The notes below the pieces were generated by a model. The model had not been told where the DNA came from. It made no database searches and worked only from the letters and a program-made list of their open reading frames with translations. A DNA stretch of 64,000 nt from a virus (Duplodnaviria; Caudoviricetes): positions 1 to 64,000 of the IMG/VR virus record IMGVR_UViG_3300037067_026376, one strand, 5' to 3'. Shown piece by piece: positions 10,237 through 37,072 of the stretch; position 1 is the stretch's first letter; each line of letters opens with the position of its first letter. The position numbers were made by a program, and so were the translations under genes.

Positions 10237-10504
10237 TCAAATTCCATTAGATTCGACTGGTTCATTTTCAACCTTAATTTTTTTCTTTCTGCTTTGCCGT
10301 TGAACATCTTGCATAAATCACAGTCAACTTTTCTTGCTTTTCTTTCTCGACTCCTATGTAAGCGTCTAAATCTTCTTGACGAAAACGCCTATGCTCACCA
10401 GTGGTCTTGAAAGACTTTATCTTCCCATTGTTGGCAAGCGTCTTGAGTGTATTTATTGATACCCCAAGATATTCGCTCGCTTCTGTGATTTTATAGATTT
10501 TCAT
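10237..10504 (-). pseudogene. tnpA: IS607-family serine transposase (TnpA) remnant lacking the catalytic core
   Basis: MerR-like HTH then VIYARCST catalytic start, stop at 10274; a different frame continues KKKIKVENEPVESNGI* to 10237; no tnpB nearby. Confidence 0.75.
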
Positions 10505-11259
10505 TTATTCGCTTCTCTGCAATTTTGAAGTACTCTGGGTCAAGTTCGATACCGATGAAGTTGCGGTTGAGATTTTTACAAGCCACGCCAGTTGAACCGC
10601 TCCCCATTGTATTGTCTAGCACTGTTTCACCTTCAATGGTATAGGTTTTGATAAGGTATTCAAGTAAGGCGACTGGTTTTTGAGTTGGGTGTTGACCTGA
10701 CTTATTTGCATTTGATACTGATATTATTGATTTTGGGTATTTATGAGTTCTAGTTCTTTTTATTCCATCGTTATTTTTAATAGGGCTACTATCTGATTTT
10801 GAATAACATTTATAGCTATCGGGATTCTCCATTTTTTCCATAATTGGAAAATATGTTCCGGAATTAAAAACTGATATTATTTCGTGTTGCTTCATGGGGT
10901 TATGTTTTGCTATCTGGAATCCGCTTGCTGTAACCTTGTTCCATATCCAATCATACTTGTAATCCTTAATATTCGACATCCTTAAATGACTAGAAAACGG
11001 CTCACTCCCAAACAATACTATAGCGCCACGATCCTTTATAATCCTTTTGTATTGCTTCCATAACGGCTCGAATGGAATAACCGTATCCCATTTACAAGCA
11101 GTAGTACCTAAGTTAGCCGTAGGGCAAATCACAAAGAATCATATCAATGGATTTTGATTCAATGTACTTCATAGCCTCCAAGCAATCTGCATGAATTAAG
11201 CTATTCGGTTGAATTTGCCCTACGTAACCTCCTTCCTTAAGATTTTCAATCACCTTCAT
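10491..11259 (-). CDS. N4/N6 DNA methyltransferase (beta class) interrupted by a stop and 10 extra nt at the DLPYG motif
   Basis: 11259-11113 encodes ...IHADCLEAMKYIESKSIDMILCDLPYG*; a second frame resumes GTTACKWD...HPTQKPVALLEYLI...VLDNTMGSGSTG. Confidence 0.85.
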
Positions 11260-11627
11260 AGTATATACCCCTTTATGTTAGTTTTTAGCGTGTTCCATTC
11301 AGCTTGTGTCATATCGTTTTTACATCTATTCTCAAACCATGATAAAAACTGTAAATTACTCAACTCATTAGTACCACCATTTGCTTTCGGTATTATATGG
11401 TCTATTGAAGGCTTAGTATACTTGCACGGATTATTCTTGTATTTTTCATACACAAGTAAAAACTGTGCATCAGTATAAAAATACTCAATATACTTTATAT
11501 ATTCATCACTCGTTATATTCCATCTACCTTCCCTATTTGTAATAGCTTCATTTAACACTTTTAGTATTTCAAAATCAAATTGCATTAACCATTCTAAGTC
11601 TATATCAAATCGCAGATGGTTCTTCAT
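11256..11627 (-). CDS. HNH endonuclease
   Basis: SIDHIIPKANGGTNELSNLQFLSWFENRCK; ATGA overlap with the methyltransferase. Confidence 0.85.
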   Translation of the reverse strand: MKNHLRFDIDLEWLMQFDFEILKVLNEAITNREGRWNITSDEYIKYIEYFYTDAQFLLVYEKYKNNPCKYTKPSIDHIIPKANGGTNELSNLQFLSWFENRCKNDMTQAEWNTLKTNIKGYIL

Positions 11628-11749
11628 ATTACCATATTTACTTTGCAGTAATGTTTCATATTTTCGTAGCCCTCTTGTATTTTTCGGTTGACGAATCTGA
11701 ACTCCATTGCCTCTTTGGATGATTTTATATCTATCACTTTATCTGACAT
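11624..11749 (-). CDS. Small hypothetical protein (41 aa)
   Basis: AGGAG RBS; ATGA overlap with the HNH start; hand-translated. Confidence 0.4.
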   Translation of the reverse strand: MSDKVIDIKSSKEAMEFRFVNRKIQEGYENMKHYCKVNMVI

Positions 11750-12368
11750 TTTTTTCTCCTTTTATTCTTGATATCTCCCATTTACCATCTTGAAATGTTT
11801 CCATCTCAAATACTTTGTCCGCTACATTTATTATCTCTTTGCCGTGGCTGACAATAATAAACTGAAGATTAAGCTCCTGTGACAATTGCTTCAAAATCTC
11901 CGCTCCATAAGGCTGCAAATCCTCTGAGAGCTGCACAAATGGCTCGTCGAGGAATATAGTATTCCGGGTCGTACCAAGGCTCCACGCTGCAATCCTGAGG
12001 CCCAGGGATGCTATATTTACGACTCCACCGGCATCTCCCTCAAATATATCCACTTCTTCCCCGGCTTTAGTAAATTGGAGTTTAGCCTCTGTTTTACCTC
12101 GTTTTATCTCAAATATAAGCTCAAATTTATATAATCCCGGAAATACAGCGTCAAGAGCCAACTGGACGATGTCTTCGATATGATATTTTAAGGATTCCTG
12201 CGTATTTTGAGCCGTCGCCTGAAGAAATGCTTGAGCGATTTCCAGATCTTTCTTGAATTGAAGCAGGGATTCCTCTTTCTCTTTTTCTATATTTTGTTTC
12301 TGCAGGAGAATATCAAGCTTGCCCTGAGATTTAAGTAATTTTTCTTTATAGTATTGTATGTTATTCAT
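11739..12368 (-). CDS. Rad50/SbcC (gp46-like) C-terminal half
   Basis: Coiled coil, degenerate ABC signature DAGGVVNIASLGLR, Walker B IFLDEPF, H-loop IIVSH; no Walker A. Confidence 0.85.
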   Translation of the reverse strand: MNNIQYYKEKLLKSQGKLDILLQKQNIEKEKEESLLQFKKDLEIAQAFLQATAQNTQESLKYHIEDIVQLALDAVFPGLYKFELIFEIKRGKTEAKLQFTKAGEEVDIFEGDAGGVVNIASLGLRIAAWSLGTTRNTIFLDEPFVQLSEDLQPYGAEILKQLSQELNLQFIIVSHGKEIINVADKVFEMETFQDGKWEISRIKGEKNVR

Positions 12369-35602: not shown

Positions 35603-37072
35603 TTACGCCTCTACCATAGCTGAATCATGAGATTTATTAAAAATACTCTGTACCCAGTTCCTTTCCTCTTCCGCTCTTTCTAATTCTTTATCAAAAGCGC
35701 TATCATTTTGTTTCCTCAACCGCACCTCATCTAGAAATTTATCGCTGGGGTTAAGATCGTAGTCGCCGCCATACTCCTTCTTTATCCACATGATATAATT
35801 CTTCCATCTCCATTTGATATAATTGATCTGGAATAAACCGTTATCACTATACATATCGGATAAAAACTTAATATGCATGTCAAAAAATTTATTCTCTCTG
35901 ATTTTTGATGGATTCAATATGTCTTTTACCCTTTCCCTGTATTCCTTTTCCCTGCGGATCACAAAATTGACGCACTGTATGAGTTCCTGCGCCTCCGTCG
36001 CATTCAAATCCTTCCCCCTGAAAAAAGAAGCGCGGTATTTTGATACTATTTCCGGATCGAGGGGTTGCTCTTTACGCTTACCTTGAAAATTCTTTTTAAC
36101 CTTGGTAAGAAAAATAGATTTATGGGTATAATCATTAAATAAGAAATTATTACAATCCGGAGGTAATTTATCTTGAAAACTCCCGTATTCTCCGGCAAGG
36201 ACATCGTCATAAATATCTATGGCGTCTATGATCTCTTCGGGAGTCCATTTCTGATAGAGATCTCTGCGAGATACTTTATTTTGTGATAGGTAATCTTTAT
36301 CAAAATTGTATATTCTCCCAAAATTACCAGTAAGCAGCATACAAAATTTTTTAGCGGCATCGTTATAAACCTTGGTTCCAGAGCGATGACTTTTTATAAA
36401 ATTTTTATTTTCTGCAATATAATTCAAAAATCTCCACCCCTCCTCAAAAGCGGGGTCGGGCGGCGTCTCCTTCCTAGGATTCTTTTTAGCGGAAGGAATT
36501 TCATTTGTTTTTATATCTTCGGGAATGATTTGATCATTGTTTAATGTTCCTTCCGCAGGAAGGACATTACTAGATACTTTAGTATCTATATTCTTTATGT
36601 TATTATTATATATGTTGTTATTAATATAGTCGCTCTCAGCTTCTCCCAGAGTCGGTTCTGCCTTCTCCCAGAGTCGGTTATTTCGACCTTCGCAAATTTT
36701 TATTTTTGTACATAAATCAGAAAGATCTAATGTATATTTATTATGTTGCTTCATTGGATCATTTGGATATAATTTTGATTTTTTTAAGATACCTAAAAAT
36801 TCCGCGTCTTTGATAGCATTAATAACAATATCTCTTCCGATTTCTAAATCTTCAGCAATTGTATTTATTTTGGGAAAACAATCGTCAACCCCTTTCCCTG
36901 TATAAGATAGCATATATGCCAACACTAATTTTACCCATTTCCCGCGTTTATTATTTTTATCTGGGTTATCGATATCGACTAAAATATCATTTAATTTCAG
37001 TCTCATTAATTTTTTAGGTATTATTCCATAACCATCTTCAAGTATACCGGATAATTCTATTGTGTTTTCCAT
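35603..37072 (-). CDS. Replication initiator-like protein with N-terminal HTH
   Basis: CFPKINTIAEDLEIGRDIVINAIK...NKY; NNNIYNNNIKN linker; upstream of the helicase. Confidence 0.6.
   Translation of the reverse strand: MENTIELSGILEDGYGIIPKKLMRLKLNDILVDIDNPDKNNKRGKWVKLVLAYMLSYTGKGVDDCFPKINTIAEDLEIGRDIVINAIKDAEFLGILKKSKLYPNDPMKQHNKYTLDLSDLCTKIKICEGRNNRLWEKAEPTLGEAESDYINNNIYNNNIKNIDTKVSSNVLPAEGTLNNDQIIPEDIKTNEIPSAKKNPRKETPPDPAFEEGWRFLNYIAENKNFIKSHRSGTKVYNDAAKKFCMLLTGNFGRIYNFDKDYLSQNKVSRRDLYQKWTPEEIIDAIDIYDDVLAGEYGSFQDKLPPDCNNFLFNDYTHKSIFLTKVKKNFQGKRKEQPLDPEIVSKYRASFFRGKDLNATEAQELIQCVNFVIRREKEYRERVKDILNPSKIRENKFFDMHIKFLSDMYSDNGLFQINYIKWRWKNYIMWIKKEYGGDYDLNPSDKFLDEVRLRKQNDSAFDKELERAEEERNWVQSIFNKSHDSAMVEA

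Follow-up and report, generated by a model that had tools for sequence, protein, structure and literature searches.

We describe here an interrupted DNA methyltransferase (methylase) gene within a stretch of 64,000 nucleotides (nt) of viral DNA (positions 1 to 64,000 of IMG/VR record IMGVR_UViG_3300037067_026376; hereafter the window), which is part of a linear viral contig of 81.7 kb, about 59% complete and obtained by metagenome assembly. The methylase is not encoded by one uninterrupted open reading frame (ORF), a stop codon and a +1 shift being located after codon 48, and this 10-nt interruption is best read as the right-hand edge of a cassette that contains an HNH endonuclease gene and carries a replacement N-terminus for the methylase. 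Comparison with related loci leads us to favour, with moderate confidence, a homing cassette in which the gap would protect the cassette's own target site and in which the methylase would be made by ribosomes that hop from one glycine codon, across a stop, to another.

All features of the locus are encoded on the minus strand. The ATG of the methylase (11259-11257) overlaps the TGA of the HNH gene (11256..11627) as ATGA, and the N-terminal part of the methylase (N-part; 11116..11259) extends over 48 codons from this ATG to a GGC, includes the catalytic motif IV (DLPY) and ends with GAT TTG CCC TAC GGC. The final GGC (11116..11118), the putative take-off codon, is directly followed on its 3' side by an in-frame TAA (11113..11115), a CTTA spacer (11109..11112) and the candidate landing codon GGT (11106..11108), located 10 nt 3' of GGC. 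The sequence continues with ACT ACT GCT TGT AAA TGG in the +1 frame, and this C-terminal part (C-part; 10491..11105) comprises 204 codons, from TTACKWD to RINENL, and a TAA stop (10493-10491), and contains motif I (MGSGSTG). An initial annotation of this DNA had described the start overlap with the HNH stop, the GGC-TAA junction and the GGT 10 nt downstream, and these positions proved exact in the sequence and the ORFs; the joined length of 252 amino acids (aa) that it gave equals the sum of 48 and 204 codons. The 12-mer at the gap, GGCTAACTTAGG, was found once in the window, at the site itself, and a dispersed repeat in this phage was therefore rejected.

The methylase belongs to the beta-class N6-adenine/N4-cytosine DNA methyltransferases, and both of its halves appear intact in the window, as the initial annotation had supposed. 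The C-part matches the Pfam model N6_N4_Mtase (PF01555; 113 bits against a cut-off of 26.7, E = 2.4e-32), whereas the CcrM-type models of NCBIfam gave matches below their cut-offs. The order of motifs is that of beta-class enzymes, with motif IV at residues 44-47 and motif I near the C-terminus. All 22 of the closest database proteins (60-87% identity) read DLPYGTTACKWD, with no residue between G and T, and the window methylase retains each of the 42 columns that are invariant in an alignment of 23 sequences. The median pairwise ratio of nonsynonymous to synonymous substitution rates (dN/dS) was 0.24 on both sides of the gap, over the 30 codons preceding it and over the 55 codons following it. 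Comparing the window with locus L011, a relative with the same gap, over the 30 codons before the stop gave a dN of 0.014 and a dS of 0.79, and comparing it with locus L026 over the C-part gave a dN of 0.015 and a dS of 1.48. The N-parts of L011 and L026 differ from each other with a dN of 0.047 and a dS of 0.76, and within cassette lineages the changes are almost only synonymous.

The interruption is not confined to the window. Viral contigs were scanned for a DLPYG-coding sequence separated by 1-30 extra bases from a TTACKWD-coding sequence, and a slightly relaxed pattern was run on species-representative genomes and metagenomes. Counting the matches listed, the gap was present in 26 viral contigs, in 20 stretches of species-representative genomes and in at least 119 metagenome stretches, which after removal of duplicates amounted to at least 152 sites in which additional bases separate DxPYG from TTxCKWD. 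In 145 of these 152 sites the order was GGN, a stop, 0-5 nt, a landing codon and ACN ACN. The extra length was 4 nt in 12 sites, 5 nt in 13, 6 nt in 24, 7 nt in 11, 8 nt in 10, 9 nt in 46, 10 nt in 17 and 11 nt in 12, and no gap of 12-30 nt was among the matches listed, although the pattern permitted them. Gaps thus occur in all three frames (0, +1 and +2) with one architecture. Recurrence at 145 non-redundant sites places the feature far beyond chance and argues against a private lesion.

The composition of the gaps follows a common scheme. The stop was TGA in 70 of the 145 sites, TAG in 41 and TAA in 34, and in the 9-nt gaps the first triplet was always a stop, whereas the second occurred in 13 forms. 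Spacers were variable and poor in G (153 T, 83 A, 55 C and 6 G, the latter being 2%), and in no site was GG found inside the gap. The take-off codon was GGT or GGC in 94% of the 145 sites, as compared to ungapped relatives, which have GGA at the same glycine in 58% of cases. The landing codon was GGN in 115 of the 145 sites and NGC or AGT in 27. The exact gap of the window, CTAACTTAGG, recurred in at least ten further contigs, all of them distinct, whose flanks differ at synonymous positions. The initial annotation had proposed looking among homologues for the same gap with synonymous variation as a sign of recoding, and the outcome was strongly positive.

The remaining 7 of the 152 sites have no stop and comprise in-frame amino-acid inserts (GGG, GNG and similar) as well as the metagenome contig L226. 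This contig has an HNH cassette and a 10-nt gap in which CAA replaces TAA (GGC CAA CTTA GGA); its C-part is still open over 209 codons, and it is the sole cassette-type site with a sense codon at the stop position. An isolated and sequenced phage, Geobacillus phage vB_GthS_PK3.6 (L108), carries a 7-nt form, GGT TAA C GGC, and its methylase is annotated as two coding sequences, gp63 and gp64, at 35900-36677 of OP341627. At the gap position of its sister phage PK3.5 (L251) there is an in-frame sense form, GGA AAC GGA (DLPYGNGKT...). The two phages are 96% identical downstream, and their methylase alleles only about 68%; the AACGG core common to both is suggestive of interconversion between stop gaps and GNG alleles of the sense form. 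In the Leptolyngbyaceae metagenome-assembled genome CBDHHL01, six copies of an element (L112, L113, L117, L124, L128 and L129), 94-99.8% identical over 2-3 kb, contain a methylase with a 5-nt gap (GGT TGA GC) and no HNH gene, representing a multi-copy mobile element.

The gap travels with the HNH gene. A homologue of the HNH gene of the window was located directly upstream of 57 of the 93 gapped sites with at least 750 nt of upstream sequence and of none of 68 ungapped sites (Fisher p = 4e-19, uncorrected for relatedness), and in 70 of 71 upstream HNH matches the end of the HNH ORF preceded the site by 103-164 nt. Of 80 loci that were retrieved solely for the similarity of their methylases, only two had an HNH gene of this kind, and exactly those two were gapped. 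Locus L039 carries three methylase genes on one contig, of which only the HNH-linked copy has the gap. Furthermore, in at least 19 of 48 loci an orphaned methylase N-terminus, ending in ...DLP followed by a stop or junk, was found 5' of the HNH gene; in L026 this old N-terminus is fused to the HNH frame, and in Vibrio phage VnaP the HNH gene is situated between two methylase fragments. From the HNH linkage together with the orphaned N-termini we take the mobile unit to be an old N-fragment, the HNH gene, a new 48-codon N-terminus with its own start, the stop gap and then the recipient gene from its own glycine codon onwards. The landing GGT of the window would accordingly be the glycine codon of the invaded gene by descent. 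If the two N-terminal repeats recombined, the HNH gene would be lost and a gapped gene would be left behind, in agreement with the absence of an HNH gene from 36 of the 93 gapped sites, PK3.6 among them.

In the window, a tract in common with the cassette of L026 (10925..11708; 86% identity over 784 nt by blastn) covers the HNH remnant, the N-part, the gap and the first approximately 60 codons of the C-part. Identity between the two drops outside this tract, as expected for a co-converted homing tract. The HNH ORF of the window scores 24.2 bits with the Pfam HNH model (cut-off 21.4), is also matched by several PHROG HNH families and shows its motif region as SIDHIIP...GGTNELSNLQ. With 123 aa it is N-terminally truncated in comparison with the family norm of about 211 aa: it aligns only to positions 69-211 of a hidden Markov model built from 19 cassette HNH genes and is without the N-terminal 68 or so positions of the 211-aa relatives, of which the L022 copy is an example, and without the helix-turn-helix (HTH)-like N-terminal part that is seen in L026. 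Pfam gave no matches on the full-length cassette HNH proteins and other upstream ORFs. The open frame of the window HNH gene begins directly after the stop of the upstream gene, which encodes a 209-aa ATPase (11739..12368; PHROG 15167, with weak ABC/Rad50-type C-terminal matches). Since the ATPase gene ends exactly where the truncated HNH frame starts, the deletion of the HNH N-terminus adjoins the ATPase gene. Having lost its N-terminal third, the HNH copy is read as degenerate and the cassette of the window as probably a fixed, immobile remnant.

Two loci with 4-nt gaps, L008 (3333-3938, minus strand) and L014 (3607-4161, plus strand), have instead of an HNH gene an upstream gene for a 185-202-aa protein of PHROG 6927 with no Pfam match, which may belong to a further family of nucleases directed at this site.

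These observations can be combined in one scheme. An HNH cassette would invade a phage beta-class methylase gene at the sequence coding for DLPYG|TTACKWD; its nuclease would cut ungapped methylase alleles at this conserved site, to which the strict linkage of HNH gene and gap, the old N-terminal fragments ending at DLP and the arrangement in VnaP point indirectly, and the gap would destroy the target in the carrier genome and thereby confer immunity. During translation of the gapped gene, GGC with its peptidyl-tRNA-Gly would occupy the P site and TAA the A site, and a fraction of the ribosomes in this state would release GGC, move on by 10 nt, re-pair on GGT and resume at ACT. The predicted product is the canonical 252-aa enzyme of about 29 kDa, with an uninterrupted DLPYGTTACKWD. 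Re-pairing of peptidyl-tRNA-Gly fits all gap classes and is alone in explaining the three frames uniformly, and the 27 landing codons of the NGC or AGT type offer two of three pairs, those of the NGC type with the anticodon GCC. Since one mechanism has to serve gaps of the 0, +1 and +2 classes, simple frameshifting or readthrough is ruled out as the common explanation, and re-initiation is ruled out by the lack of a start codon 3' of the stop in most classes. The stop has been kept while switching among all three forms next to a variable spacer, which indicates that it is under selection at the level of translation and that the genes have been gapped for a long time. The initial annotation had proposed a programmed stop-hop as a candidate; the Gly-stop-Gly geometry on which it relied is borne out over 4-11 nt and in all frames, and the context of the HNH cassette had been missed. 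The wider claim, which we consider as likely as not, is that phage methylases host a large natural family of programmed Gly-to-Gly hops of 4-11 nt over a stop, in any frame, by which an HNH cassette immunises its target while the host gene is preserved. No earlier natural family of stop-hops would then be known, and the cassette would be the second, after T4 gene 60, to combine bypassing with a homing endonuclease; it would be present in cultured phages (PK3.6).

Several observations weigh against this scheme. Take-off and landing codons are often mismatched (GGY to GGA in 48 sites), and the 4-nt class (GGT TAG C) is without a second GGN. As the second GG is the glycine codon of the recipient by descent, it cannot count as separate evidence for a landing site. 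On a tree of 286 C-part rows there are at least 49 changes of the gap state, and the nearest C-parts to that of the window are ungapped; because the cassette is mobile and the gap state labile, much of the divergence and conservation of the C-part may predate the invasion, and the window copy may have been invaded recently and not yet have decayed. Inserts that stay in frame and contain only sense codons (GNG, GGG) also occur and are apparently tolerated, so that a stop would have no obvious advantage; that the stop is kept for attenuated expression is a guess. In addition, laboratory stop-hops in E. coli, those of Weiss et al. from 1987, are said to be inefficient, at about 1%, and the yield of enzyme may be tiny. 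No family-wide consensus RNA stimulator was found near the gap either, with an alifold energy of 0.0 and 64.6% against 62.1% of cells paired.

The C-part tree must itself be read with care. Clustering of the gap state is significant (49 changes as compared to 87 in shuffles), with the qualification that the ungapped rows were sampled around the relatives of the window and that gap-only clades may be a sampling effect. Moreover, L126 and L127 have the gene in common and not the flanks. The tree was for these reasons not used as proof of vertical descent or of long persistence in the gapped state.

Local RNA structure is suggestive in single lineages. The region 11100-11170 folds with a minimum free energy of -13 kcal/mol (z = -1.84), and 11 of 200 shuffled sequences fold as well. 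Within it, folding weakly indicates a 13-bp hairpin (11130..11166) that ends 11 nt 5' of the take-off codon. It is kept in relatives with 10-nt gaps, with an extended inner stem in L118. In other lineages this position is occupied by another hairpin, in which one compensatory change is clear (AGTATC/GATACT vs AGCATC/GGTGCT). A hairpin with at least 10 of 12 pairs at this position was present in 25 of 113 gapped and in 1 of 72 ungapped genes. The 12-pair hairpin model performed only weakly better than shuffles, and z-scores from synonymous shuffling did not separate gapped (-0.77) from ungapped genes (-0.27; Mann-Whitney p = 0.19). The hairpin is a possible lineage-specific stimulator acting on the exit side.

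The initial annotation had also raised a simple knock-out, and this remains the main rival, although we consider it unlikely. According to this explanation the cassette inactivates the methylase, the stop ends translation after 48 residues and no functional enzyme is made, the downstream ORFs being intact only since invasions are recent and frequent. The 49 changes on the C-part tree and the ungapped state of the closest C-parts of the window agree with such a course, and destruction does occur, as the HNH gene of Vibrio phage VnaP is flanked only by methylase fragments. C-parts already truncated account for 9 of the 119 assessable gapped sites; in the other 110 (92%), however, the C-part has stayed open and full length. 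In the N-part, start and frame are preserved and most substitutions are synonymous, and conservation of the stop position as TAA, TAG or TGA, next to a spacer that is free to vary, speaks for a gapped state that has long been under selection at the level of translation. Nor would a knock-out need gaps that are at most 11 nt long, G-poor and without GG.

An explanation restricted to this gene, which we regard as improbable, is a +1 frameshift at the shifty stop GGC-TAA-C, by which three extra residues would be incorporated (DLPYG-NLG-TTACKWD). The predicted junction peptide would then be DLPYGNLGTTACK, as opposed to DLPYGTTACK after a hop. The length of the gap (3n+1) and the +1 frame, which is open across it (AAC TTA GGT), are compatible with such a shift, natural relatives tolerate two extra residues at this place (GNG, GGG), and the 4-nt class GGT TAG C can also be read as +1 (G-S-TT). 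On the other hand, tRNA-Gly re-pairs poorly on GCU, and the explanation fails for the in-frame (6 and 9 nt) and +2 (5, 8 and 11 nt) classes, which have the same architecture and cassette. More doubtful still is a two-chain enzyme, in which the C-part would be initiated on its own and associate non-covalently with the 48-aa N-peptide. A GTG at 11132 in the +1 frame does open an ORF of 213 aa, but this GTG is peculiar to the frame class, the in-frame and +2 classes being without a start after the stop; the ORF would begin inside the N-part and out of frame, and a C-part alone has no motif IV.

Least credible of all is an artefact or private lesion, that is an assembly or sequencing error or an IS607-type scar as entertained in the initial annotation, for even though the contig is a metagenome assembly, GG flanks the gap and an IS607-like HTH ORF abuts the gene, the identical gap recurs between different synonymous flanks in the contigs mentioned above, the isolated phage PK3.6 carries a sister form that excludes assembly error as a general explanation, and the gap co-occurs with HNH genes and not with a transposase, the HTH ORF following gapped and ungapped methylases alike. 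An intron remnant, likewise considered there, was rejected on account of size, the gap being far too small.

The bypass of T4 gene 60, a subject of the review PMC5009743, reportedly comes with an HNH homing-endonuclease element, MobA, as described in 2011 by Bonocora et al. In that element the HNH gene is combined with an N-terminal extension that contains a region of homology and with a bypass cassette, and the landing codon marks the end of the insert (bioRxiv 10.1101/2022.08.31.505936). The methylase loci resemble it in having an HNH gene, a short out-of-frame overlap, an N-terminal extension that repeats target sequence and a stop-containing gap ending at the landing codon. They are also alike in the glycine take-off codon with an adjacent stop and the glycine landing codon (GGC...GGT in the window), in the uninterrupted state of element-free alleles and in the frequent degeneration of the HNH gene, in T4 itself as in the window. 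In contrast, the target in T4 is a topoisomerase II and not a beta-class DNA methylase, and the T4 gap is 50 nt long (20 nt in the shortest clade), whereas gaps of 4-11 nt leave no room for a take-off stem-loop. The codons are GGA to GGA in T4 and GGY to GGN here, no T4-like nascent-peptide motif was identified in the methylase family, and the upstream fragment, kept as a subunit in T4, is discarded in the methylase loci. BLASTP of the HNH protein against T4 gp60.1, the part of MobA that was compared, revealed no similarity (E = 0.47 and 1.7). Finally, bypassing is proven for T4 gene 60 and proposed for the methylases.

The hop itself is closer to the synthetic stop-hops constructed in E. coli by Weiss, Dunn, Atkins and Gesteland in 1987 (PMC5009743). 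In these constructs, too, the A site holds a stop when peptidyl-tRNA leaves its codon, and pairing is resumed on a matched codon a few nt downstream, independently of frame, with hops of +5, +6 or 9 nt. They were engineered and of low efficiency; the family proposed here would be natural, widespread and apparently selected. According to a 2016 review no natural in-frame stop-hop was known (PMC5009743). The ShiLan-type HNH genes of actinophage methylases (PMC11855218) likewise place a homing HNH inside a phage methylase gene without obvious destruction. That insert, however, is translated in frame into an additional protein loop, with the HNH hidden in another frame, and neither a stop nor a gap nor a replacement N-terminus is present. 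The byps of Magnusiomyces capitatus mitochondria (PMC5009743) differ in being GC-rich inserts of 27-55 nt at many sites in many genes, without a nuclease partner. We found no published description of the methylase stop gap in a literature search that lacked most subscription journals, and among 50,697 deposited phage genomes no close DNA relative spans at least 80% of the region.

Bypassing in bacterial viruses has long rested on essentially one example, T4 gene 60 and its homologues, and short stop-hops were formerly known only from engineered constructs. If the proposed hop is real, more than 140 natural sites with graded lengths, three stops and varied landing codons would constitute a mutational series for release and re-pairing of the P-site tRNA, and bypassing would have been recruited by homing endonucleases on at least two occasions as a protection of the target site. 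A correction of gene callers, by which these methylases are at present split or truncated, would then be possible, with a bearing on predictions of phage methylomes and anti-restriction. Should the gene instead be dead, a widespread HNH cassette targeting the sequence that codes for the catalytic motif of phage methylases would still be documented.

Among the tRNA genes of the window, which are those for tRNA-Tyr, tRNA-Met and tRNA-Ser, there is none for tRNA-Gly. On its 3' side the methylase stop is overlapped by a 76-aa ORF of the MerR/excisionase HTH type (10274..10504). The initial annotation had called this ORF a tnpA remnant, and it does match an IS607 transposase model over positions 2-69, the N-terminal third, with an E of 2.6e-13 that is below the cut-off. 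It ends just after a YARCST motif, and methylases in L031, L039, L046, L030 and L034 are followed by copies with 79-99% identity over 19-74 aligned aa (74 aa for both L031 and L039), the methylases of L031, L046, L030 and L034 being ungapped. The ORF therefore looks like a conserved small partner of the methylase rather than a decayed transposase, and is possibly a regulator.

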